DNA from: an uncultured bacterium | GTDB lineage: Bacteria > Patescibacteriota > Minisyncoccia > Minisyncoccales > UBA10102 | Assembly (NCBI GenBank): GCA_913054235.1 | Contig: CAJXJI010000001.1 | Span: forward strand, 6,868 to 70,867 | Length of the DNA: 64,000 nt | Direction of reading: 5' to 3' | Part shown: in pieces, positions 22,053 to 34,654 of the stretch | Position numbering within the stretch: position 1 is the stretch's first letter | Layout: the number at the start of each line of letters is the position of its first letter | Program-made: the position numbers and the translations under genes | Notes under the pieces: model-generated | Database searches by the model: none | What the model was told of the DNA's origin: nothing | What the model saw: only the letters and a program-made list of their open reading frames with translations

Positions 22053-25000
22053 TTAGTAACTGTAGGTAGGTCCTGTTGCGGCAGAACCGTAGCTATCGGT
22101 TTCTGTCTTATAGGTAGCAGCACCGGAAGTGTTTAGTGGGGTGTAATCCCAGCTAAATCCTTCAACCTGTGCTGTTGTAACCTGGTTTGGTCCTTTGGCT
22201 CCAGGAATTCTGATTCCAAAGCTTGCCGATACTGAAGTTACGAGACCTGAACTATCTTCTGCTCGCTTCACGTTTGACGTGTCAGCTTTCACTACCAATG
22301 TCATTGTTTGGCCTGCAGTTACTGTCTGCTCGGCCAAAGCCGTTACAGCAGAACGTGCATCAAATACAACAGTACCAGAACCTCTAGTAAGGTTGTAGAT
22401 GTCAGCCGGCTCAGTGCCAGCCACAGCAGCTGCGTTGGTGGAAATTCCAGATATTGCTACCTGGGTTACAGTAACTGTGTTTGCTCCAATAGAAGCAACT
22501 GTTGCTGTACCACTATCTGCAGCAGTACCCGCTATAACGTAGAGCTGATCACCAACCTGATACTTTGAAGCATCTGCAACGTCATAAGTCAAACCACTAT
22601 TTGCAGTGGCGCCATCAACGTCAGATACCGTGTACACAATGTAGGTGTCATCAGTTGCTATGGTGCCATCTACAACATCGGCTGCCATAACCATAACTGT
22701 AGAACTCGTAATACTGGCCACTGTGGTTGTTCCAGAGTTCGCTTCTGTACTTAAATCAATATAAAGGACAGAGTCACCAACTAGGAATCCAGCTGTACCA
22801 GCAACAGTAGCAGTAGCTGTACTACCTGAAGTAGCTGTAGTTCTGGTGTTTGTTGCAAGACCTGATACTTCAGCGATTATAGTATCGCCATTAAACAACT
22901 TAAAGTCTTTTACATTCCAGTCTGCGCTACTACCAAGCTTCTCTACTACCAAGCTTCTAAACGTCATGTCTCGGCTTCCAGAAGCTTTAATGCTAATGGT
23001 TCCAACAACCTGATCAAGGGCAGGTGATGCAACTCCTCCTGTTGGAAGAGAGTCACTTCCTGTGACAGTAAGCACTGGTTGCACCTCTTCATACCTCATG
23101 GTGTTACCCGTAAGGCTATTGGTGTTCGTGATCTTAGTAACATGGTCTCCAGCTGCTGCGATTGCAATTGAACCAGCAGGGCTAAAGGCAAGGCCTGAAA
23201 TTGCACTACCTGAAGCCACAGCCGTGGTCACGATTGCAAATCCTGCCTCGTTATCATCAGAGTCATATACATACACCAGATCACCTACGGCGTAAGCTAC
23301 CCCAGCGTTTGCATTTCCAAGAATGGCCTCTACCTTAGAAAGCTTGGTGATAATATCACCTGCTGCCCAAGAAGTGTCAGTTGCTTCTCCTTCAAGATCC
23401 AGGTCAGCTGATGCCAAGTTCACTGAATCATCATCCGTAGTTACCAATGCAAATCCTGGAGCTGTGGTTGTTCCAGCATCAGCTGTTACAGTCCAGTATA
23501 CAACGTCACCCACGTCTCCAGAGTAAGCATCCGTACCTGCGGTATACGCAGTTCCAGATGAAAGGGACTCTTGCGTGGTCAAACCAGAGCCTGATCCAAT
23601 TACATCAGCAGCGCTAAATCCGAGAACTCCAAGGTTTGATGCGGTCAACGTTCCAACTACCGTAGTATCCACAACTGCGGTTATTACTCGGGAACCATAT
23701 GAAGGAACAATGATCTCATTTCCTGAGCCAAAGGTAAACGTTGCAGTTCCTGCTGTGAGAGCTGTTGAAGGGTCGCTTGAAAGACCCGTGCCAAGCAACT
23801 TCACATTTGCAATGTTTCCTGCTCCATTCAATGTTCGCAGTACAAGCCTTTCTACCTTCATGTCTTCTACTGTTGCAGACAACTTAATTCTTGCCATTTC
23901 AATTCCGGTTAAACCAGGGGTCAAGAATCGGCTGGAAGCAGCTCCGGTAGAATCCATAGCAACTGTTACAGTTCCTGATTCAACAATAGTCAAAGTTCTT
24001 GCTGTCACAGTCGCTGAAGGACCCGTAATGGATGATCCAGATGTTGCACCAACTCCCGTAACATCAGCTGCATTCAGAGAAGCAATGTATGTGTCATTGG
24101 TACCTCCATCAGAAGCTGCGGTGTTTGCGCTTGCATACACATCAACCTGCACTGTCGTGGAAGCTAGAATATTCAGCTCTCCTGAGACAGTAAAGGTGTT
24201 GTTGGTAGCAGTAGGGGAGGCAATAGTGCTTCCCATCTGTGCTCCAGTGCTTGTCAGCTTTACCTTCATGTTGGTCAAACCAGTTGCAACCGCAACATCA
24301 CCTGCAGTAAGATCTACTACGATAGTAGAGATGTTTACTCCTTCAGAAGAGTTAGTTTGCATCAAGAAAGAACCAATAAGAAGCTCTGACTGACCCTCAA
24401 TCACAGTAGCAGCACCTATAGAAGCATTGTTCACAACCGTCAAGGTTGCGGTAGATGCTGTTAAGGTGTTAGTTGAGATATGAGCGTTTGCGTCAGACGC
24501 AGTTCCATAGGTGTTGGATGTCATTCTCTTATAGTACACTCGTCCTAGTCCACCAATGATGGTTTCTGCATCATCGATGCCGGTTCCAGCGTCAACCACA
24601 ACTTTTACCTTAAGTACGGTTCCAGCTGGAATAGTGTAGTACGTAGAAAATGTTACTTGGTCACCACTGTCATTTGCAGCGTTATCATCATCAAACAAAT
24701 CATCTGCTCCAGCTGACTGACTGTGAAGAGTTTGTCCTGCGTCAGTCATGAACTTAATTGTTCCAGAAAAGTCTCCATCGTCAGAGCTTCCACCAAGCTC
24801 ATAGTCAGCTCGCTGAATCTGAATATCTTCACCCTGAGCCTGAAGTTCCCAGACACCAACAACAATGTTGGCCTGTCCGATACCAAAGGTTCCTGAAGGT
24901 GAGCTACCTGACTTGTTCACGGTCAAAGTTCCCTGACTCACAGTCAAGAGGTTGTATCCTGAATTTCCAGTGGTGATGTCACCAATAGGAATTGCGGAGT

Positions 25001-26402
25001 CAACTGTTCCTGCGGCTGTTGGCAAAATACCAAGGCCAGTAGATACTCCGACTACCTGAAGATCGTAATCGTTTTGAATGATAACCTGTCCAGTTCTGTT
25101 AGAACCAGAGATTACATCAACTCGAACGGTTAAATCTTTTGTTGTTCCTTTCAAAATCGTGTAAGGCTCGGAGAGAATAAACTCAACCGACTTGCTGGTT
25201 GCTCCAGCAACCGTTGCCAACACAACTCCGTTAGGATCAACCAAATCAAAGTTTACGAGATCAGCATCAGCTGCAGTTCCATTCTGGAACAATGTCAATC
25301 TGTTAATCTTCGCGTCTTCGTTTCCAGTTGTCTCAACAAAGCGGAACTTGCTCAAAACATAATCAGTTCGTCCAATATCCACACTTACTGAGGTTGAGGT
25401 CTGTGAGACCACATCTATAGTTACTGCTCCCAAAATGCTTGAGGTGGCAGTAAGAGTCTGAAGGTTTCCATTTATAGGAAGACCTGTTGGGTCACCGTTT
25501 ATGCCAGTTACGTTAAATCCAATAGTTCCTGCAGTTGCTGCAGAGTTTACGTGCACTTGCACATTAAACGTGGTAGAGCCTCCTGCTGAGGCCACAATAG
25601 GATCTCCAGTAAATGGAATAGTTACTTTGCCATCAGCTAAAGTAACAACACTTCCGTGTCGATTACCGTTTGCGTCAACGATTAATACTCCGTCAACATT
25701 CGTGTCAATGGAAAGACCAAATCTCTCCACAGTAACAGATGTGACAGAAGCTCCACTTGCTCCTCCATTTACTTGCACCTGAACTACGGTGTTGTAAGCA
25801 GAAGATGCTCCCAATGTTCCAGCTGCTGGGTTGTTAAATCCAACTTGTACGCTGGAAGGACCGGTTGTTGGAGCTGGGGTTGGAGTACCAGGCGTTGGGC
25901 TTGGCGTTGGTGATGCTACAAACAATGCATTGATCTTTGCTCTTGAGGAAGAACCAAAGAATCCGGTTCCAGCACTCAATCCCAAAGGCTCCAATACATT
26001 TGCAGCATACTTGTCCTGAAATTTAATAACTCCGCTTCGGGTAATTGGCCCAAAGAAAGTTGTTTCATTTCCAGGAGAGCCAGCTCCAGAGTCTGCCAAT
26101 TTCGTGGCAGGGTCGGAGTTCAAGAACATCTGGAGGTACATTACGTCCTGTCCCTTAGATCCTACCGTAAGACTTGTGTCCCAGGTAAAACCAGCAGGAA
26201 TGCCAGAAACGCTTACCGTTCCAGTGTCTCCTCCGTCTATGTCTGTTAATTGCGCTTGCAATGTTGCCAATTGCGCCATAAGAGCGTCAATCTGTACCTG
26301 CAATTCAGCTGCGGTTAACGCAGAAGCTGGTGCAGGAACAGCTACGATCCCAAGCATAGCAACAACAGTTACAACGGCAAATATTTTCTTAAATCTACTC
26401 AT
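22053..26402 (-). CDS. Giant (1449 aa) secreted Thr/Ser/Gly/Ala/Val-rich surface protein: N-terminal coiled-coil plus PG-binding-like anchor, then tandem beta-rich domains (putative S-layer/adhesin)
   Basis: Signal peptide MSRFKKIFAVVTVVAMLGIVAVPAPASA. Coiled coil LQVQIDALMAQLATLQAQL. PG_binding_1-like domain GQDVMYLQMFLNSD...FFGPITRSGVIKFQDKYAANVLEP...GFFGSSSRAKIN. Recurring modules of the form ...R(F/L)..V.K..R..F..(L/V)...G......V.F.L.D.NG.V.A.V.G. The coding GC is much higher than the genome background. Confidence 0.75.
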   Translation of the reverse strand: MSRFKKIFAVVTVVAMLGIVAVPAPASALTAAELQVQIDALMAQLATLQAQLTDIDGGDTGTVSVSGIPAGFTWDTSLTVGSKGQDVMYLQMFLNSDPATKLADSGAGSPGNETTFFGPITRSGVIKFQDKYAANVLEPLGLSAGTGFFGSSSRAKINALFVASPTPSPTPGTPTPAPTTGPSSVQVGFNNPAAGTLGASSAYNTVVQVQVNGGASGASVTSVTVERFGLSIDTNVDGVLIVDANGNRHGSVVTLADGKVTIPFTGDPIVASAGGSTTFNVQVHVNSAATAGTIGFNVTGINGDPTGLPINGNLQTLTATSSILGAVTIDVVSQTSTSVSVDIGRTDYVLSKFRFVETTGNEDAKINRLTLFQNGTAADADLVNFDLVDPNGVVLATVAGATSKSVEFILSEPYTILKGTTKDLTVRVDVISGSNRTGQVIIQNDYDLQVVGVSTGLGILPTAAGTVDSAIPIGDITTGNSGYNLLTVSQGTLTVNKSGSSPSGTFGIGQANIVVGVWELQAQGEDIQIQRADYELGGSSDDGDFSGTIKFMTDAGQTLHSQSAGADDLFDDDNAANDSGDQVTFSTYYTIPAGTVLKVKVVVDAGTGIDDAETIIGGLGRVYYKRMTSNTYGTASDANAHISTNTLTASTATLTVVNNASIGAATVIEGQSELLIGSFLMQTNSSEGVNISTIVVDLTAGDVAVATGLTNMKVKLTSTGAQMGSTIASPTATNNTFTVSGELNILASTTVQVDVYASANTAASDGGTNDTYIASLNAADVTGVGATSGSSITGPSATVTARTLTIVESGTVTVAMDSTGAASSRFLTPGLTGIEMARIKLSATVEDMKVERLVLRTLNGAGNIANVKLLGTGLSSDPSTALTAGTATFTFGSGNEIIVPSYGSRVITAVVDTTVVGTLTASNLGVLGFSAADVIGSGSGLTTQESLSSGTAYTAGTDAYSGDVGDVVYWTVTADAGTTTAPGFALVTTDDDSVNLASADLDLEGEATDTSWAAGDIITKLSKVEAILGNANAGVAYAVGDLVYVYDSDDNEAGFAIVTTAVASGSAISGLAFSPAGSIAIAAAGDHVTKITNTNSLTGNTMRYEEVQPVLTVTGSDSLPTGGVASPALDQVVGTISIKASGSRDMTFRSLVVEKLGSSADWNVKDFKLFNGDTIIAEVSGLATNTRTTATSGSTATATVAGTAGFLVGDSVLYIDLSTEANSGTTTVASITSSTVMVMAADVVDGTIATDDTYIVYTVSDVDGATANSGLTYDVADASKYQVGDQLYVIAGTAADSGTATVASIGANTVTVTQVAISGISTNAAAVAGTEPADIYNLTRGSGTVVFDARSAVTALAEQTVTAGQTMTLVVKADTSNVKRAEDSSGLVTSVSASFGIRIPGAKGPNQVTTAQVEGFSWDYTPLNTSGAATYKTETDSYGSAATGPTYSY

Positions 26403-26510
26403 TTTTGTAATGTTTTTTTGTTTTAATTTTTATGCGACTTATCTTTGAGTTTCGACCTTTAAAAAATTATCAATCCCACAGATTGTTAAGTGGGTTCGTC
26501 CTCAAATAAA

Positions 26511-27254
26511 TTAATTGGAAATCATCCAAATATTCTCTAATGCTTTCTGGTAGTTTGCCGCCTGATATGCACCAATAGCTTCTTTGAGCAATACTTCCTG
26601 CTCACTGGTCAATGATCTTTTAAGCAAATCATTTAACTCAGATTCAACTAGAATCTTGGTTGCGCTTTTCAATCCTGATGTTTCTTCTTCTCCGATAGTA
26701 GCACCCAAAATCTGCTCTATTTGAGCTTTACCCTTTTGCAATTGTACTAGTTCTCGAGAAGCCTGTAAAGCCTTTTCAGGTTCGTTTTCCACAAGGGCTA
26801 AAAGACCTCGTGAAACCTCTGCTACGCTTAGGTTAAATTCCTCTGTTGCAGAAGCAAGATTCTTTACCTTGTTCCCCTCAACTACCCTTCTTAAGTCTGC
26901 CAAGCGTCTTTCAGCTACCTTAAAGGTAGCTGAAGAGTCACTTCCTGTGGTTGCCTTTTCAATAATAGAGCGAACCGAGTATAGGGGGTCTCCAGGAAGA
27001 CTGTTTTGTGAAACCTTATACCCAATCCCTCCAAATACCACAAATGCCAAGACTGCAAAGATATAGGCTGGTCTTTCAAGGTATCGGACATAGGATACAA
27101 GATGTCCTATCTTGTAAATAAGGCTAGGATTTTGTCCTATCTCCTTATTAGCCTCATTTGGAATACTGGTCTTAGCAAAAAGCACCCAACTGTTTCTAGG
27201 TTCAATTTCCTTTAAGCGAGATAATTTTGTTATGAGATCCTTTTCGTAGGCCAT
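26511..27254 (-). CDS. Single-pass membrane anti-sigma-factor-like protein (DUF5667-like LPGDPLY motif)
   Basis: Cytoplasmic N-terminus, one TM helix (AYIFAVLAFVVFGGIGYKV), then SLPGDPLYSVRSIIEK and a helical extracytoplasmic domain. Sits immediately downstream of the ECF sigma gene. Confidence 0.6.
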   Translation of the reverse strand: MAYEKDLITKLSRLKEIEPRNSWVLFAKTSIPNEANKEIGQNPSLIYKIGHLVSYVRYLERPAYIFAVLAFVVFGGIGYKVSQNSLPGDPLYSVRSIIEKATTGSDSSATFKVAERRLADLRRVVEGNKVKNLASATEEFNLSVAEVSRGLLALVENEPEKALQASRELVQLQKGKAQIEQILGATIGEEETSGLKSATKILVESELNDLLKRSLTSEQEVLLKEAIGAYQAANYQKALENIWMISN

Positions 27255-27311
27255 TATAGTTATGACGTAAAATAAGGGAAAGTATTACACTATCGGCTAT
27301 CCTAATTTGCT

Positions 27312-27815
27312 CTAAACATCCACCTTGCCCTTTAGGGCTTGAATGGCTCTATGAACCCCTACTCTCACGTTCTCCTCAGTCTTGCCGGTAATTTGAGCTA
27401 TTTCAGGCACAGTGAGCTCATCTACATATCGCCAGATAATAAGGTCCTGATAGTCTCCTTGGAGCTTTGCTATAGCCTCTTTTATCCTATCCATTTCCAA
27501 GCTTACTTCGCCCTGTTCTCTTGTTCTTTCCTGAATATCTTCAATTTCAATAGTGGTTTTCTCAATAGATACCACGGTAATCTTTTTGCTCCTATAATGG
27601 TCTGCTATGACATTCCTTGCTATTTGGTAGACAAAGGCCTGAGGATTCTCAATTACAGGATTGTTCTTTTGAATATGCCTGTATAAGCGCAAAAACACCT
27701 CAGACGACAAATCCTCTGCCGTCTCAACTAAACTAACCTTCAGGTATATAAACCGATAGATCTTGTTGACATATTGATCGTATACCTGATTAAAATATTG
27801 ATCTATTTCTTCCAT
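27312..27815 (-). CDS. ECF-type RNA polymerase sigma factor (sigma-70 regions 2 and 4)
   Basis: Region 2 FIYLKVSLVETAEDLSSEVFLRLYRH...QAFVYQIARNVIADHYR; region 4 HTH LTVPEIAQITGKTEENVRVGVHRAIQALK; 167 aa. Confidence 0.85.
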   Translation of the reverse strand: MEEIDQYFNQVYDQYVNKIYRFIYLKVSLVETAEDLSSEVFLRLYRHIQKNNPVIENPQAFVYQIARNVIADHYRSKKITVVSIEKTTIEIEDIQERTREQGEVSLEMDRIKEAIAKLQGDYQDLIIWRYVDELTVPEIAQITGKTEENVRVGVHRAIQALKGKVDV

Positions 27816-27901
27816 ATCTATATGAATGTCCTACCGCATATGATAGGACAAATAGCCTACAAAGTCAATGTCCTAGTTTTATGCACAGTTATTCCCCAGT
27901 T

Positions 27902-28528
27902 TTAACGAATCTGATAAAAAATCTCATTCCACTCTCCTTGTCTGATAATAAAGCTACGCTGGAGTAAGTCATCTAAATCTCTTCGCAAAGTTCTTTTCGT
28001 AACTTCAGGAAGTACCTTTTGTAATTCCCAAACCTGTACTTTTGGCTTGTTTCGCATAAGCTCTAAAATCCTAGATTGTCTAAAGGAAAGCTTCCCTTTA
28101 GATACTGACGTATTTTCCTTGCTCTTTATAACAGGAACTGTCTGTCTTGTGCTTATATCTTGCTTCAGAACAACTCGCTCTTGATTTACTACTATTGATT
28201 TTTCGTGAATCTTACGTAAAAACTCTCCCACCCTGTTATACTCCCGCTCCAGCATTATAAAGTTTTCTGGGTTTATTTCAGCTGTGCGTTTTGCATAGTT
28301 TAAATAAGCTACAAGTTTACCAGTCTCCCGAATTGCTCTTGCGGTCACCGTAGGCCTTTGCCCTGACATAGCGGGGTTTTCTTGCACAAGCAAAATAAGG
28401 CTTACCAAAAGCTTATTTGAAGAATCTTGCACCTGAGCTCTTAAAGGATCCTCTCGGGGCAAGATATTAACTACTTTATGAGTAGCTACTATGAGACGAA
28501 CAAAAAAGTCAGCATTCATTATACGCAT
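27902..28528 (-). CDS. Putative transcriptional regulator with C-terminal DeoR-like winged-helix HTH
   Basis: C-terminal RQSRILELMRNKPKVQVWELQKVLPEVTKRTLRRDLDDLLQRSFIIRQ matches the HTH_DeoR pattern; the N-terminal 120 aa are unassigned. Confidence 0.5.
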   Translation of the reverse strand: MRIMNADFFVRLIVATHKVVNILPREDPLRAQVQDSSNKLLVSLILLVQENPAMSGQRPTVTARAIRETGKLVAYLNYAKRTAEINPENFIMLEREYNRVGEFLRKIHEKSIVVNQERVVLKQDISTRQTVPVIKSKENTSVSKGKLSFRQSRILELMRNKPKVQVWELQKVLPEVTKRTLRRDLDDLLQRSFIIRQGEWNEIFYQIR

Positions 28529-28689: not shown

Positions 28690-28914
28690 ATGATAAGAAT
28701 GACAAAATTGATGCAGCGTGTAGCAAAGGAACAACAGCAACCATTGGAGCGGTTGCTACCAGAAATGATCAATGACATCGGGTTTTCAGCTACTGCAAAG
28801 GAACTGGACATCAATAAGGCAACCCTAGGGTACTGGCTCTTAAAGCTCGGCATACGTGTACAGCGAGTAGCTCTTGCTCCAGGGGAAACCCTGGAAATAA
28901 AGAGGCTATCTTAG
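28690..28914 (+). CDS. Small (74 aa) helix-turn-helix protein
   Basis: IGFSATAKELDINKATLGYWLLKLGI is HTH-like; it has its own promoter, RBS and downstream hairpin plus T-run. Confidence 0.5.
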   Translation: MIRMTKLMQRVAKEQQQPLERLLPEMINDIGFSATAKELDINKATLGYWLLKLGIRVQRVALAPGETLEIKRLS

Positions 28915-29046: not shown

Positions 29047-29265
29047 GTGGAGAAGATAGTGGTAAAACAGAGAGATAAGCGGAGTAAAAATCCCAAAAAG
29101 AAGAGCCCATTTCGCAAAAACAGAAAAGTACGTATTAATGGAGGCCGCTTTGATGGTGCTATAGCAACAATCATGTTTGCTGGTAATAGCGAAGCTACAG
29201 TCAGAATACCAGGACGCGAAAAACCTGAGTCATTTTCCCTCGATCAACTACGCTTGGCCTCCTAA
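29047..29265 (+). CDS. Small (72 aa) basic protein with KOW-like motif
   Basis: N-terminus KQRDKRSKNPKKKSPFRKNRK is highly basic; KVRINGGRFDGAIATIMFAGNSEATVRIPG resembles a KOW/L24-like beta barrel; followed by a strong terminator. Confidence 0.45.
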   Translation: MEKIVVKQRDKRSKNPKKKSPFRKNRKVRINGGRFDGAIATIMFAGNSEATVRIPGREKPESFSLDQLRLAS

Positions 29266-29294
29266 GGAGAAGCAAATCTCCAGAAAAAGCAAAA

Positions 29295-29328
29295 GCCCTT
29301 GGCATATTGCCAAGAGCTTTTTTATTTT
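29295..29328 (+). terminator. Rho-independent terminator
   Basis: GCCCUUGGCA-uau-UGCCAAGAGC (one mismatch), followed by TTTTTTATTTT. Confidence 0.6.
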
Positions 29329-29426: not shown

Positions 29427-29454
29427 TTGACAAATCCAAAATAAGGTGTATAAT
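29427..29454 (+). promoter_or_regulatory. Near-consensus sigma70 promoter TTGACA-16-TATAAT
   Basis: ttgacaaatccaaaataaggtgTATAAT seen directly; drives the downstream 49-aa ORF or sRNA unit. Confidence 0.5.
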
Positions 29455-29707: not shown

Positions 29708-29742
29708 GCCCCCCGGCACAAAACACCGGGGGCTCTTTTTTA
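29708..29742 (+). terminator. Strong rho-independent terminator
   Basis: GCCCCCCGG-cacaaaaca-CCGGGGGCU followed by CTTTTTTAT. Confidence 0.7.
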
Positions 29743-29828: not shown

Positions 29829-30548
29829 TCAAAGTCCAAGAAAAGTCCTCAGCACCGAAGAAGGAATAACAAAGATGTTTCTTTGAAGGTCAGCATCTGC
29901 TAAACCCGCAACTCTTCCTTCCACGTCAAACAAAGGAGCACCATCAACATTTTCATTCTCCACGATTGAAGTGGATAAAGAATCTTCTTCTACTTTCTTT
30001 ACAATCCCCATATTCACAATTAGAGTTCCTTCACCCTCCTCAATAATTTTTGCTAGTAATACCACTCGCTCTCCAAGCTTAACTCCCCCATTACCAACAA
30101 AACCAGCTGTTTTAAGTCCCATATCTTCTATTTTTAAAAGCACAAGATTATTTTTTACATCACGTTTTAAAACTTGGGCCTCCAATGGATCTTGTCCTTC
30201 AGGATATATCATAATCTTAAAGCCAGTTGGAACCAGGGAAGATAAAGTAACAATTAATCCGTCTGAAGTATATACAAGGCCAGAACCTGCTCGCGTGCCA
30301 GAACTCTTTAGCGCAACCACAGTATTTTTTACTTCTTGAATTGTCCTCTCTATTGCCTCATTCTCACGAACAAAAATCTGCTCTACGGGAGCTATTATTT
30401 GAGTTCTTGCATTCCAATCTTTTAAAAATTGCCAATCTGCAAAAGCAGGGTTTGCTGCCAAAGAAGGTAGCAAAAAAGCTTGGGACCAGAGGCCCCCAGC
30501 AGCTCCTGCTAAAAACAGAAGTAAAAACAAAAGAATTCGTCTTGTCAT
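29829..30548 (-). CDS. Catalytically inactive trypsin-fold HtrA/DegP-like pseudoprotease with signal/TM anchor
   Basis: Collinear with the neighbouring HtrA. GSGLVYTSDGLIVTLSSLV aligns with GSGFIVSPDGLIITNKHVV (His to Ser). NNLVLLKIED aligns with QDLAVLKIDQ (Asp to Asn). NVDGAPLFD aligns with GNSGGPLLN (the nucleophile Ser falls on Asp). No PDZ domain. Confidence 0.6.
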   Translation of the reverse strand: MTRRILLFLLLFLAGAAGGLWSQAFLLPSLAANPAFADWQFLKDWNARTQIIAPVEQIFVRENEAIERTIQEVKNTVVALKSSGTRAGSGLVYTSDGLIVTLSSLVPTGFKIMIYPEGQDPLEAQVLKRDVKNNLVLLKIEDMGLKTAGFVGNGGVKLGERVVLLAKIIEEGEGTLIVNMGIVKKVEEDSLSTSIVENENVDGAPLFDVEGRVAGLADADLQRNIFVIPSSVLRTFLGL

Positions 30549-33257
30549 CTAGCGTGCTGTTTTTTGGAGTTTTCGCTTTGGCATGGTTTTTAAAGAATCC
30601 ATGGAACCCAAAACTACAATCTCCTTATTCTCTGCATCTACCCGCACCTTTCCTCCAGACTGAACTTCTCCTGTAACAATTTTAAGTGACAGCGGATCTA
30701 ATACTTTGCGCAAAATAACACGGCGCAAGGGACGGGCTCCCAGTGCAGGATCAAATCCTTGTTCTGCCAGAAGCTCTTTTGCTTTTTCTGTAACATCCAT
30801 TGTAATTCCCTTAACAGAGATACGCGAAGCAACTTTGGCTAATTCCAACTCCACAATCTTTTTTATTTCCAGCTTTGCTAAGTAGTCAAAGATAATGATT
30901 TCATCAATACGATTTAAAAATTCAGGGCGAAACTCCTCTTTTAAGACTGCCATAACCTTATCTCGAACAGAATTCTTTTTCTCTTCCATGTTGTCTCCCA
31001 TAAAGCCGAGGGGAGACATTTCAGCTATATGCTGCGAACCAACGTTTGAAGTCATAATAATAATGGCGTTTTTAAAGGAAGCAACTCTCCCTTTTGCATC
31101 GGTAAGACGACCATCTTCCATTATCTGCAAAAGCACATTAAATACCTCAGGATGAGCTTTTTCAATCTCATCAAACAAAATAACTGAATAGGGACGTCTC
31201 CTTATTTTCTCAGTTAGCTGACCTCCTTCTTCATGTCCCACATATCCTGGAGGAGAGCCAATCATGCGTGAAGTGGTATGACGTTCCATATACTCTGACA
31301 TATCCAAACGAATCAAAGCATTTTCATCATTAAAGAGAAACTCAGCTAATGCTTTTGCAGTTTCGGTCTTGCCTACTCCAGTCGGACCCAAAAACAAGAA
31401 CGAACCCAAAGGTCTATTTTCTTCAGATAACCCCGCCCTGTTTCTTCGAATAGCACTTGAAATAGCAACCACTGCTTCTTCTTGCCCAATGATCCTTTTC
31501 TTTAATGCATGTTCCATCTTTTCTAATTTCTTTGCCTCCTCTTCCATTAATCGCATAACAGGAATACCGGTCCATTTTGAAACTACACGAGCAACATCTT
31601 CTTCCGTAACCTCTTCTTTGAGTAGAGGATTAGTCTTTTGAAATCTTGCCAATTTTTTTTCTTCTCCCCGAAGTTTCTTCATAAAGTCCGGGATTGTTGC
31701 ATATTTTATCTCAGCTGCCTTTTGCGAATCCCCTGATGCCTGCTCTCGCTCCACCTGAAACCTTGCATCTTCCAAATCCTTCTTAATATCTTTTATGGTA
31801 TCAATAACATCTTTTTCTGATCTCCACTTTGACTCAATTGCTTTTGCTTTTTCCCGCAAATCAGCCAAAGCTCTGGAATTTGCTTTTACCTTTTTTTCTT
31901 CAACTCCCTCTGCTTTAAACGCAGCTTGTTCAATCTCAAGTTTTTGAATCTGCCGCTTTAAAGAATCAAGTTCGGCGGGTTCAGATTCCATTTCCAAGCG
32001 CAAAGAAGACATTGCCTCGTCCATTAAATCGACAGCCTTGTCTGGCAAGAATCTATCTGAAATATATCTTGCTGCCAAGTTTGCTGCAGACACAAGTGCA
32101 GAATCTTTAATCTTTACTCCATGATGCAGTTCATATTTTTCTTTAATTCCCCGCAAGATTGAAATAGCATCTTCAATGCTGGGTTCTACTACCAAGATAG
32201 GTTGGAACCTGCGCTCTAAAGCAGGGTCTTTCTCAATATATTTTTGATATTCCTTGAGCGTTGTAGCTCCAATTGCTCTTAGTTCTCCGCGCGCCAAAGC
32301 TGGCTTTAAGAGATTGGAGGCATCAATGGCTCCTTCAGCCGCCCCAGCTCCCACCAGCGTATGCAGCTCGTCAATAAACAAGAGGTATTTTCCTGCTGCT
32401 CTTTCAATCTCTTTTAAAAGCGCCTTAATACGATCTTCAAATTCACCTCGGTATTTGGTACCTGCTACCAAAGCTCCAATATCCAAAGCAATAATTTCTT
32501 TTTCTTTTAAAGATTCTGGGACATCTCCTTTTATAATTTTTTGTGCCAATCCTTCCACTACCGCAGTTTTTCCAACACCAGCCTCTCCAATAAGGACAGG
32601 GTTGTTCTTTGTTCTCCGAGACAACACTTGCATTAATCTTCGAATCTCATCTTCCCTTCCAATAACAGGATCAAGCTTCCCTTGCTCAGCTAAACGGGTA
32701 AGATTTCGTGCATACTTTTCTATAACCTGATACTTGCTCTCTGGCGCAGGGTCTGTAATGCGAACACCCCCTCTTATCTGAGCTAAGATTTTTAAAGCCA
32801 TTTCGTAATTTAAACTACCAAACTCCACCGCCTCTGGTCCTCCAGCACTGGGTTTAAGAAAACTCGTACGTTCCAAGATTTCTTTTGCTTTAGAGTTTGT
32901 ATCCAGCAATCCTAAAAATAAATGTTCTACTGAAACATACTCGTCTCCCATTTTAGAAGCCTCCTGGCGAGCACGTTCCATTACCTTTGCTAGGTCTTGA
33001 GTAAGATAAAACTGACCAAGAGGATTCGCTCCAGATACCACAGGAAGACGTCCTAAAGCTGTCTCTGTCTTACGCTTTAGGCCATCAATATCTGCTCCAA
33101 TCTTTTGCAATAATGTTAATACCACGCTCTCTTCTTGTCCAAGTAATGCAAAAAGCAAGTGCAACGCATCCACCTGTTGCTGTCCTCGCTCCTGAGCAAG
33201 ATTTTGTGCTTGAAACAAGGCTTCTTGTGCCTTATGGGTAAAGTTTCCTGAATTCAT
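30549..33257 (-). CDS. clpB: ATP-dependent chaperone ClpB
   Basis: Clp N-domain; two AAA+ modules (GEAGVGKTA and GPTGVGKTE Walker A); long coiled-coil middle domain; 902 aa. Confidence 0.93.
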   Translation of the reverse strand: MNSGNFTHKAQEALFQAQNLAQERGQQQVDALHLLFALLGQEESVVLTLLQKIGADIDGLKRKTETALGRLPVVSGANPLGQFYLTQDLAKVMERARQEASKMGDEYVSVEHLFLGLLDTNSKAKEILERTSFLKPSAGGPEAVEFGSLNYEMALKILAQIRGGVRITDPAPESKYQVIEKYARNLTRLAEQGKLDPVIGREDEIRRLMQVLSRRTKNNPVLIGEAGVGKTAVVEGLAQKIIKGDVPESLKEKEIIALDIGALVAGTKYRGEFEDRIKALLKEIERAAGKYLLFIDELHTLVGAGAAEGAIDASNLLKPALARGELRAIGATTLKEYQKYIEKDPALERRFQPILVVEPSIEDAISILRGIKEKYELHHGVKIKDSALVSAANLAARYISDRFLPDKAVDLMDEAMSSLRLEMESEPAELDSLKRQIQKLEIEQAAFKAEGVEEKKVKANSRALADLREKAKAIESKWRSEKDVIDTIKDIKKDLEDARFQVEREQASGDSQKAAEIKYATIPDFMKKLRGEEKKLARFQKTNPLLKEEVTEEDVARVVSKWTGIPVMRLMEEEAKKLEKMEHALKKRIIGQEEAVVAISSAIRRNRAGLSEENRPLGSFLFLGPTGVGKTETAKALAEFLFNDENALIRLDMSEYMERHTTSRMIGSPPGYVGHEEGGQLTEKIRRRPYSVILFDEIEKAHPEVFNVLLQIMEDGRLTDAKGRVASFKNAIIIMTSNVGSQHIAEMSPLGFMGDNMEEKKNSVRDKVMAVLKEEFRPEFLNRIDEIIIFDYLAKLEIKKIVELELAKVASRISVKGITMDVTEKAKELLAEQGFDPALGARPLRRVILRKVLDPLSLKIVTGEVQSGGKVRVDAENKEIVVLGSMDSLKTMPKRKLQKTAR

Positions 33258-33298
33258 AGAATATACTTAAAATACCACAAAAAAGAACATAAAGCAAC

Positions 33299-34654
33299 CT
33301 ATTCTGAGCGCTCGTCCAACTTCACACTAAAGATGTGTTCCTCACTATCACGAAGCACTTTGAGCACAACCTCCTCGTCAGGATTATACTGTTGGAGAAT
33401 ATTTGCCAAAGAGTTCTCTTTGTCAATACGCTCCCCATTTATTTCCAAGATAATGTCTCCTGCAACAATTCCTGCTGCCTCTGCAGCTGACCCTGGGACA
33501 ACAGCAGCCTTCCCATCGGGGCCGGATTTAATCCATACTCCGTGCGTGACCGATAAGTTTTCTTCTTGCGCCACTGCCTCTATTATTTCAACATAGCGCA
33601 CACCCAAGAAAGGATACACTATCTTGCCCAATTCCATTACCTGTTTAATATCACGCGCTGCTCTGTTCACAGGAATTGCAAAACCAATATTTTGGGCATC
33701 CAGCACAGTTGCAGTATTAATACCAATAACTTCCCCAGCCAGATTCAACAAAGGGCCCCCTGAATTACCTTTATTAATAGCAGCATCAGTTTGGATCACA
33801 TTTTCTATGGTTTCAACAAAATTTCCAGAGCCCGAAGCAGTGATAGTACGCCCCAACCCAGAAATAACTCCTACGGAAACCGTATTACGAAACTCAGCTA
33901 ATGCATTTCCAATGGTAATTACAGTCTGCCCAATTTTAAGAATATCAGAGTCACCTAAGACCACTGATACAAAAGGCACTCTCGTAAGATTCCCATCAGC
34001 ATCAATAATACTTTCCTGATCAATCTTTAAGACCGCCAAATCCTGCAAAGGATCTTTTGCCAGCACGCGAGCAGTAAAGGAATTACCATCTGTGGTAAAA
34101 ACCGTATACTCTGCTTCATCATCCAACACCACATGCTTATTGGTAATAATGAGTCCGTCTGGAGAAACAATGAATCCCGACCCACCTCCTACCTCACGTC
34201 TCTCTATCCCCTGCTGGCGAAATTGTGGAATCTGAAATCGAGAACGTCCACCAAAGAAACCTTCAAAAGGGTCAACAAAAAATTGCTCTATAATTGGAAC
34301 ATCCTTGGTAATGATAATACTTACCACGGCAGGAGAAACACTTTCTACAACATTAATAATCTTTTGCTCCTGCGTGGTCTGGGGAATATATTCTTTTTCT
34401 ATCACTCTTTCTTGTATAGTCCTTTCTGGCAATTCAAACCCAACCTGCGTTAGCAGTGTTGAGACTTGTTGGTATAGAACTCCTCCAACCACTGCTCCTG
34501 CGGTGAAACCAGAGAACGAAGAAATCGCAACCACCAAAACCAAGAGAGAAATCAACTCACTTTGCCCAAGTTTTTTTGCAAGTTTTTGCAAGGGATTTTT
34601 ATCTTGCTTAAAAATCCTTTTTGGTTCTGTTGGAGGTAGTTCATTAAGTGCCAT
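33299..34654 (-). CDS. htrA: HtrA/DegP-family serine endoprotease with PDZ domain
   Basis: N-terminal TM; catalytic TNKHVV, DLAVLKID and GNSGGPL; C-terminal PDZ GVWIKSGPDGKAAVVPGSAAEAAGIVAGDIILEING. Confidence 0.9.
   Translation of the reverse strand: MALNELPPTEPKRIFKQDKNPLQKLAKKLGQSELISLLVLVVAISSFSGFTAGAVVGGVLYQQVSTLLTQVGFELPERTIQERVIEKEYIPQTTQEQKIINVVESVSPAVVSIIITKDVPIIEQFFVDPFEGFFGGRSRFQIPQFRQQGIERREVGGGSGFIVSPDGLIITNKHVVLDDEAEYTVFTTDGNSFTARVLAKDPLQDLAVLKIDQESIIDADGNLTRVPFVSVVLGDSDILKIGQTVITIGNALAEFRNTVSVGVISGLGRTITASGSGNFVETIENVIQTDAAINKGNSGGPLLNLAGEVIGINTATVLDAQNIGFAIPVNRAARDIKQVMELGKIVYPFLGVRYVEIIEAVAQEENLSVTHGVWIKSGPDGKAAVVPGSAAEAAGIVAGDIILEINGERIDKENSLANILQQYNPDEEVVLKVLRDSEEHIFSVKLDERSE

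Follow-up and report, generated by a model that had tools for sequence, protein, structure and literature searches.

A conserved clpB-linked HtrA-fold pseudoprotease family in Parcubacteria

Introduction

Bacteria of the candidate phyla radiation (CPR) have tiny genomes and few recognizable chaperones, and they are not amenable to genetics. What might a protein with the fold of an HtrA protease, but without the residues that catalyze proteolysis, do in such a cell? This question is raised by ORF239, a 239-amino-acid (aa) open reading frame (ORF) in a 64,000-nt stretch of contig CAJXJI010000001.1 (assembly GCA_913054235.1), assembled from an uncultured bacterium of the Patescibacteriota. We refer to this whole stretch as the window, and all window coordinates are counted from its first nucleotide (Table 1). 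ORF239 is a member of a large, undescribed, Parcubacteria-wide family that has an architecture of its own, a predicted anchor followed by a PDZ-less dead domain, and a distinctive coupling to clpB. We tentatively propose that the protein binds unfolded polypeptides on the outside of the cell membrane without cutting them.

ORF239 retains the HtrA fold

The Pfam family Trypsin_2 aligned with residues 88-216 of ORF239 over its whole profile (1-144 of 144, E = 9.5e-10, 39.8 bits against a cut-off of 27.6), whereas no PDZ family in Pfam matched ORF239 at E ≤ 1, and the protease-like domain runs to the last residue, 239. BLASTP against the HtrA encoded in the window gave 27% identity over 171 columns (E = 4e-7), and the best sequence matches in the PDB, obtained with phmmer, were human HTRA1, DegP-like proteins, and MucD. 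An AlphaFold2 (AF2) model built with 34 family members as input had a mean predicted local distance difference test score of 87.6 and consisted of a helix at residues 2-32, two more helices, and then the β-strand pattern of a trypsin-like double barrel. When this model was compared with the PDB using Foldseek, the top 50 matches were all HtrA-family protease domains or proteins, the best being HTRA1 protease domains (E of about 1e-13, root-mean-square deviation of 2.0-2.5 Å, and target-normalized template modeling score of 0.78-0.85). These results bear out the first-pass annotation of the locus, made from the nucleotide sequence, in its description of a conserved HtrA fold without a PDZ domain. 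The stretch aligned to the HtrA sensor loop L3 is about 14 residues shorter in ORF239, which fits the lack of a PDZ domain for L3 to signal with. No NCBIfam model reached its cut-off for ORF239, and the HtrA models fell far below theirs (TIGR02037, 28.2 vs 416.2 bits; NF047968, 24.2 vs 470 bits; TIGR02038, 16.0 vs 423 bits).

The catalytic apparatus is lost throughout the family

The catalytic positions were located by three independent alignments: BLASTP to the window HtrA, phmmer to human HTRA1, and a MAFFT alignment of 200 family members with HtrA. All three placed the His, Asp, and Ser positions at S104, N134, and D202, respectively, so that the earlier claim that all three catalytic residues are replaced stands, and the triad is not shifted to intact residues elsewhere in the protein. 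The same motifs in the window HtrA are intact (TNKH, QDLAV, and GNSGGP). The full triad was present in none of the 200 members, 116 of which had no His at all, and the catalytic-Ser column contained nineteen different residues, with Ser in 28 members but never together with His. Two positions ahead of the catalytic Ser, the oxyanion-hole Gly is replaced by N200 in ORF239 (NVDGA vs GNSGG), and this column varies across the family as well (N, S, A, I, L, or E). ORF239 itself contains no His and no Cys; therefore, no re-alignment can restore a His-Asp-Ser triad.

Hydrolysis through non-canonical catalytic residues would have to rely on positions such as D96, K128, D130, K139, and T193, which are strongly conserved and in principle reactive, or on a Ser that occurs two positions past the former nucleophile site in 115 of the 200 members. 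However, the missing His residues, the hypervariability of the old nucleophile column, and the loss of the oxyanion-hole Gly all argue against such an activity, and D96, D130, K139, and T193 are identical in the active HtrA of the window, in which they do not belong to the triad. We regard a surviving hydrolase activity as highly improbable. More generally, the conserved residues G88/G90, D96-G97, D130, L135/L137/K139, G159, G181, T193, G203, and G215 are shared with the window HtrA, and because most of the conserved residues are identical in the active enzyme, a role in maintaining the fold is probable. Conserved features specific to this family are N134, F150, and an E62-N63 motif preceding the domain, as well as R129 and E197 in a 34-member alignment.

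A large family under purifying selection

A word-indexed search retrieved 67 relatives of ORF239, down to 32% identity and nearly all 220-255 aa in length. An exhaustive profile search extended the family to at least 214 representative clusters (50% identity, E ≤ 1e-30), and the 150 best-scoring of these were mostly full-length matches of about 220-260 aa that included the N-terminal helix. Named members belong to Candidatus Wildermuth-, Nealson-, Portnoy-, and Pacebacteria, and the source annotations of relatives read "serine protease [Patescibacteria group bacterium]", "Candidatus Pacebacteria", or "hypothetical protein". The first-pass annotation had called dead HtrA paralogues rarely annotated. 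This agrees with the names given to these members and with the lack of an NCBIfam model, but two HtrA-fold proteins without a working active site, MamO and PflC, have already been described (see below).

In every relative found, the reading frame was intact, and the length and architecture were conserved. One member, in the related locus L020 (6001-7041; related loci are numbered with the prefix L), was called as a 346-aa protein with a 110-residue N-terminal extension, which is possibly an over-long gene call. The ratios of nonsynonymous to synonymous substitution rates (dN/dS) obtained from L001-L004 were set aside as unreliable because the synonymous sites were saturated, and the closer relatives L021 and L022 were used instead. 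Compared with these two, ORF239 had dN/dS values of 0.105 (dS = 0.39) and 0.117 (dS = 0.73). In the comparison with a dS of 0.73, the values were 0.040 for clpB, 0.134 for the intact htrA, and 0.129 for a neighboring cysteine desulfurase gene, indicating that ORF239 is constrained about as strongly as the neighboring real enzymes HtrA and cysteine desulfurase. The loss of the PDZ domain and of every catalytic residue might have suggested a decaying htrA duplicate, a pseudogene in progress. This reading is refuted by the number of clusters, the intact frames, the conserved length and architecture, and a dN/dS of about 0.11, and we assign it a negligible probability: the gene is present and undisrupted in relatives and evolves under purifying selection.

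A conserved N-terminal helix is predicted to anchor ORF239 in the membrane

A strongly hydrophobic 19-mer starting at about residue 6 was found in 196 of the 200 family members. In this set, a mean of 1.8 Lys/Arg residues occur in the few positions ahead of the 19-mer, and about one Lys/Arg and one Asp/Glu lie in the 15 residues after it. According to the positive-inside rule, this bias predicts that the N-terminus is inside and the domain outside, as in membrane-anchored HtrAs. Because typical signal peptides have shorter hydrophobic stretches than this one, a membrane anchor is predicted rather than a cleaved signal, and the protein, originally described as secreted, would instead remain tethered with its domain facing outward.

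Within the helix, G15, G18, G19, and P28 rank with the most conserved positions, and segment 11-20 is conserved like the fold core. This Gly-rich pattern points to packing between membrane helices. The helices of ORF239 (LAGAAGGLWSQAF; 30468-30506, minus strand) and of the window HtrA (TAGAVVGGVLYQQV; 34474-34512, minus strand) have a common small-residue motif, and the likeness is seen in the window and in close relatives (AGAAGGLW in ORF239 and AGAVVGGVLY in HtrA). The shared motif could reflect common descent of the whole N-terminus or mutual packing of the two helices; however, Gly-rich helices are common, so the resemblance is weak evidence.

ORF239 is the second cistron after clpB

The genomic context was compared at 17 distinct loci in addition to the window. 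Seven came from species-representative genomes and were located using the 14 closest family members, and ten came from contigs carrying diverse members, reaching rank 150 of the profile search. In all 17 loci, clpB lay upstream of the pseudoprotease gene, and the two genes were directly adjacent in 16. The junctions ranged from an overlap of about 8 nt to a spacer of 82 nt, with most of the stop and start codons within a few nucleotides of each other (ATGA-type overlaps, TAGATG, and TAAATG), and the junction persisted in members with as little as about 27% protein identity. In the window, the stop codon of clpB (TAG) directly abuts the ORF239 start codon (TAGATG, no spacer), and no obvious Shine-Dalgarno sequence precedes ORF239 (upstream sequence …AACAGCACGCTAGATG). 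L014 and L015 carry an unrelated 237-aa ORF without a Pfam match between clpB and the pseudoprotease gene (5207-5920 in L014); the ORF in L014 was considered as a second paralogue and rejected because it is unrelated to the pseudoprotease.

On the minus strand of the window, the order of transcription is htrA, clpB, ORF239, and a terminator-like hairpin. The Pfam domains of ClpB and the intact HtrA motifs agree with the first-pass annotation that ORF239 sits beside clpB and a catalytically intact htrA. The same annotation had placed htrA downstream, whereas htrA is upstream on the coding strand, and it had described ORF239 as inserted next to clpB, whereas ORF239 is a second cistron whose junction with clpB is kept in divergent relatives. 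At the related loci, htrA directly preceded clpB in 13 of 17 cases and was not found within the 2-3 kb upstream of clpB in L008, L014, L017, and L020. Since clpB is invariant and htrA is not, the conserved unit is clpB plus the pseudoprotease gene rather than htrA plus the pseudoprotease gene. Between htrA and clpB, a small ORF of 56-69 aa without a Pfam match occurs in L010 (5172-5342), L012 (4955-5164), and L016 (2930-3139), and L012 additionally carries a sigma-70-like gene there; in the window, the two genes are separated by a 41-nt spacer.

These arrangements bear on our main alternative explanation, in which ORF239 is a non-catalytic partner or regulator of active HtrA that docks on or joins the membrane-anchored HtrA trimers. 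Such a partner could activate the protease, as MamO does with MamE, or dampen it, as a subunit with a shortened L3 that does not relay activation. The frequent position of htrA directly upstream of clpB, also seen in the window, is in favor of this explanation, as are the similar small-residue-rich membrane helices and the conservation of the pseudoprotease helix, which resembles that of a contact surface. A precedent exists in MamO, a pseudoprotease that promotes the activity of its active paralogue (PMC4794232). In contrast, the four loci listed above keep clpB and the pseudoprotease gene without htrA in the upstream region, and the helix motif carries little weight given how common Gly-rich helices are. 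Furthermore, the positions of Y169 and F171 of HTRA1, which we take to be the aromatic trimer-lock residues, are occupied by N63 and A65 in a hand alignment. The earlier suggestion that ORF239 is a regulator or decoy of HtrA is weakened by the invariance of clpB as the neighbor and the less constant adjacency of htrA, and we consider a partnership with HtrA possible but unlikely.

Transcription signals and heat-shock control

A promoter-like pattern (TTGAyTTT, about 17 nt, and a TAnAAT-like element, often TG-extended) lies just before clpB in all ten loci aligned (the window, L001-L003, L007, L008, L010, L017, L020, and L022), although it is a consensus match of which just a part is a conserved alignment column. 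The pattern occurs regardless of the gene upstream, including at four loci where htrA does not precede clpB. In most of the aligned loci, it ends about 6-12 nt before the clpB ATG, so that the clpB mRNA may lack a leader altogether or have one too short to accommodate a Shine-Dalgarno sequence. At the other end of the unit, the terminator-like hairpin past the ORF239 stop codon (Table 1) is likely to be the end of a clpB-ORF239 transcript.

A perfect controlling inverted repeat of chaperone expression (CIRCE), the HrcA operator (TTAGCACTC-N9-GAGTGCTAA), lies 244 nt upstream of clpB in L014. Imperfect copies were found upstream of clpB in L012 (three mismatches, at 73 nt) and in L005 (four mismatches, at 51 nt); the copy in L012 overlaps TTGACT, a -35-like hexamer. 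In lineages bearing CIRCE, HrcA probably controls the clpB-pseudoprotease pair as part of the heat-shock response. Because CIRCE is missing in the window and in its closest relatives, this control seems to vary from lineage to lineage.

Both the clpB junction and the operators are relevant to the idea that ORF239 is a structural or scaffold protein of the envelope, which reuses the HtrA fold without any role in quality control, with its position after clpB representing a frozen gene order. Gene order is generally well kept among the loci, and a cluster encoding a giant surface protein and a sigma factor of the extracytoplasmic function (ECF) type recurs nearby. PflC, which has an Asp-to-Asn replacement and a lost triad and forms a lattice as a scaffold, offers a precedent (PMC12222027). 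However, the stop and start codons still abut or overlap at about 27% identity, whereas other neighbors change; this speaks for selected co-expression with clpB and against passive synteny, and the CIRCE elements before some of the pairs place those pairs in the heat-shock regulon. We therefore regard a purely structural role as improbable.

A proposed non-catalytic stress factor co-produced with ClpB

The explanation we favor, with a probability of roughly 0.45, is that ORF239 is a non-catalytic, extracytoplasmic, membrane-tethered HtrA-fold factor that is co-produced with ClpB and binds unfolded polypeptides without cutting them. Its gene would form the second cistron of a two-gene transcript that starts with clpB, with translation of the two coupled, and the protein would be anchored at the outer face of the cytoplasmic membrane by its N-terminal helix. 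ClpB would disaggregate proteins inside the cell, and ORF239 would act outside in the same protein-damage response, with its residual HtrA substrate-binding surface serving as a holdase for unfolded exported or membrane-proximal polypeptides. It may do so in contact with the membrane-anchored active HtrA. ORF239 would then be a natural equivalent of the protease-dead but chaperone-competent variants DegP S210A of Escherichia coli and HtrA S221A of Helicobacter pylori, which keep a protective chaperone-like activity under heat stress (PMC6892219). The parallel consists of the same fold without a working nucleophile and a link to the heat-shock response. In contrast, these variants are single-residue laboratory mutants that retain PDZ domains, regulatory loops, and cage formation, whereas ORF239 is natural, has no PDZ domain, and has shortened loops; its binding activity is proposed by analogy. 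The substrate-binding chaperone that the first-pass annotation offered as another possibility is likewise plausible.

Several points weigh against the holdase proposal. The chaperone activity of DegP-type HtrAs is usually tied to PDZ-mediated cages; ORF239 has no PDZ domain, and its L3 region is shortened as described above. CIRCE was not found in the 64-kb window at up to three mismatches, so heat-shock control in this genome is an assumption. Translational coupling usually hints at a physical partnership, yet ClpB is cytoplasmic and the ORF239 domain is predicted to lie outside; a holdase function would leave the specific link with clpB unexplained. Finally, the conserved Gly-rich helix suggests an intramembrane partner that the proposal does not name.

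In another explanation, ORF239 would work physically with ClpB across the membrane, the domain recognizing misfolded exported or membrane proteins and the helix handing them over to ClpB for extraction. The invariant, translationally coupled linkage with clpB and the unusually conserved helix are compatible with this arrangement, and Derlin with Cdc48 provides an analogy as a pair of a pseudoprotease and an AAA+ protein. However, the predicted cytoplasmic tail has only about four residues, almost nothing for ClpB to bind, and ClpB is not known to act in this way on membrane-embedded clients. We judge such a handover to be very improbable. The fullest form of this idea, a membrane-spanning, Parcubacteria-specific quality-control device whose ectodomain captures misfolded exported or membrane proteins and whose Gly-rich helix couples it to ClpB, is likewise a long shot; if true, it would be a bacterial counterpart of the extraction systems that combine a pseudoprotease with an AAA+ protein. 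In a weaker version of this long shot, ORF239 would be the first known member of a class of dedicated, ATP-independent stress chaperones that act outside the cytoplasm of bacteria lacking a periplasm.

Comparison with known HtrA-fold proteins

With its HtrA fold, degenerate triad, and purifying selection, ORF239 is an HtrA-fold pseudoprotease. It resembles the proteases HtrA, DegP, and DegS (MEROPS S1C) in homology (27% identity to the window HtrA), in fold, and in its neighborhood of stress genes, and its predicted N-terminal membrane anchor recalls those of DegS and the HtrAs of Gram-positive bacteria. Unlike the S1C proteases, it lacks the triad, the oxyanion hole, and a PDZ domain. The site-1 protease of the DegS type, apart from the anchor also predicted for ORF239, differs in being active, in having a peptide-sensing PDZ domain, and in cleaving an anti-sigma factor.

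Among described pseudoproteases, MamO of alpha-proteobacterial magnetotactic bacteria acts non-catalytically and promotes proteolysis by MamE (PMC4794232). MamO and ORF239 have in common the HtrA/trypsin_2 fold, a degenerate triad, a non-Gly residue in the oxyanion hole, retention by selection, and the vicinity of an active paralogue (MamE in the case of MamO). MamO, however, keeps the His and Asp of the triad (H116 and D149) with Thr in place of Ser, and has a surface di-histidine metal site and a C-terminal TauE domain. ORF239 has no second domain, and its lack of His excludes a metal site of this type; its host is a member of the Parcubacteria, and its linkage is to clpB rather than to a magnetosome island. 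Against the NCBIfam model for MamO (NF040961), ORF239 scored 17.2 bits, compared with a cut-off of 800 bits.

PflC, a protein of the flagellar medial disk of Campylobacter jejuni, is an HtrA homologue without the triad (PMC12222027). It resembles ORF239 in its HtrA fold, in the replacement of the catalytic Asp by Asn, in an atrophied active-site region, and in being extracytoplasmic, a location that is predicted for ORF239. PflC retains the protease:PDZ:PDZ architecture and forms a lattice in the flagellar motor. ORF239 instead lacks PDZ domains, carries a predicted membrane anchor, and is coupled to clpB, and the loci inspected around its relatives showed no flagellar genes. Full-text literature searches on ClpB and HtrA in Patescibacteria or CPR turned up no account of the ORF239 family.

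Other features of the locus

A few kilobases downstream of the clpB-pseudoprotease pair, a minus-strand cluster (22053-28528) encodes a protein with a DeoR-type helix-turn-helix (HTH), an ECF-type sigma factor, a DUF5667 protein, and the giant surface protein (Table 1). The cluster recurs in L006, L007, L008, L012, L017, and L020, and the large proteins at the position of the giant surface protein in L008, L012, and L017 carry an LTD domain. The presence of a membrane-anchored DegS-like fold near a sigma factor and its putative anti-sigma factor is only a lead.

Between this cluster and ORF239, the plus strand carries two small ORFs without Pfam matches, at 28690-28914 (74 aa) and 29047-29265 (72 aa, very basic). 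tblastn of both against the related loci gave no match and the relatives have different genes there, which suggests a variable stretch. At 29291-29321, a palindromic hairpin is terminator-like when read from either strand. In the gene-poor stretch between the small ORFs and ORF239, a perfect consensus sigma-70 promoter is present on the plus strand at 29427-29454 (TTGACA, 16 nt, TATAAT; 12 of 12 positions); no convincing ORF, tRNA, or Rfam family was found downstream of it, and the minus-strand terminator hairpin stands in its path. Scanning the gene-poor region downstream of ORF239 for Rfam families and tRNAs gave nothing above threshold, and the sole Rfam match, STnc380, was rejected as chance-level (25 bits against a gathering score of 60).

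Table 1. Coordinates of ORF239, its domains and key residues, neighboring genes, and putative transcription signals in the 64,000-nt window
Feature	Coordinates	Strand	Description
Giant low-complexity surface protein	22053-26402	-	
DUF5667 protein	26511-27254	-	Candidate anti-sigma factor of the ECF sigma factor
ECF-type sigma factor	27312-27815	-	
Protein with C-terminal DeoR-type HTH	27902-28528	-	
Intrinsic-terminator-like hairpin	29710..29732	-	10 pairs, 7 of them G-C, with a T-rich tail; about 100 nt past the ORF239 stop
ORF239 gene (HtrA-fold pseudoprotease)	29829..30548	-	239 aa, ATG start; stop codon included in the coordinates
HtrA-type double β-barrel domain (residues 77-239)	29832..30320	-	From model secondary structure, HtrA/HTRA1 alignments, and Pfam match 88-216
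D202, catalytic-Ser position	29943..29945	-	Codon GAT; NVDGAP vs GNSGGP
N134, catalytic-Asp position	30147..30149	-	Codon AAT; KNNLVLLKI vs LQDLAVLKI; Asn in 150/200 and Asp in 14/200 members
S104, catalytic-His position	30237..30239	-	Codon TCC; TLSS vs TNKH; His in 1/200 members
N-terminal hydrophobic helix (residues 5-29, ILLFLLLFLAGAAGGLWSQAFLLPS)	30462..30536	-	Predicted anchor, N-terminus inside; helix 2-32 in the AF2 model
clpB	30549..33257	-	902 aa; first cistron; full ClpB domain set in Pfam (Clp_N, AAA, AAA_lid_9, AAA_2, ClpB_D2-small)
Promoter-like element in the 41-nt htrA-clpB spacer	33269..33297	-	TTGCTT, 17 nt, TG-extended TATTTT; ends 11 nt before the clpB ATG
htrA	33299..34654	-	451 aa; membrane anchor, Trypsin_2 protease domain, one PDZ domain

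Implications

The ORF239 family is a third, independent, and much larger case of an HtrA-fold non-enzyme after MamO and PflC. In this respect, the name "serine protease" is wrong for hundreds of database entries, and the family needs a model of its own. Unlike MamO and PflC, it occurs in a classical heat-shock context, so that the long-debated chaperone function of HtrA could become accessible in a natural protein devoid of proteolytic function. For CPR bacteria, the long retention of this gene in a fixed, translationally coupled pair with clpB offers one of the clearer clues to the protection of their envelope proteins.

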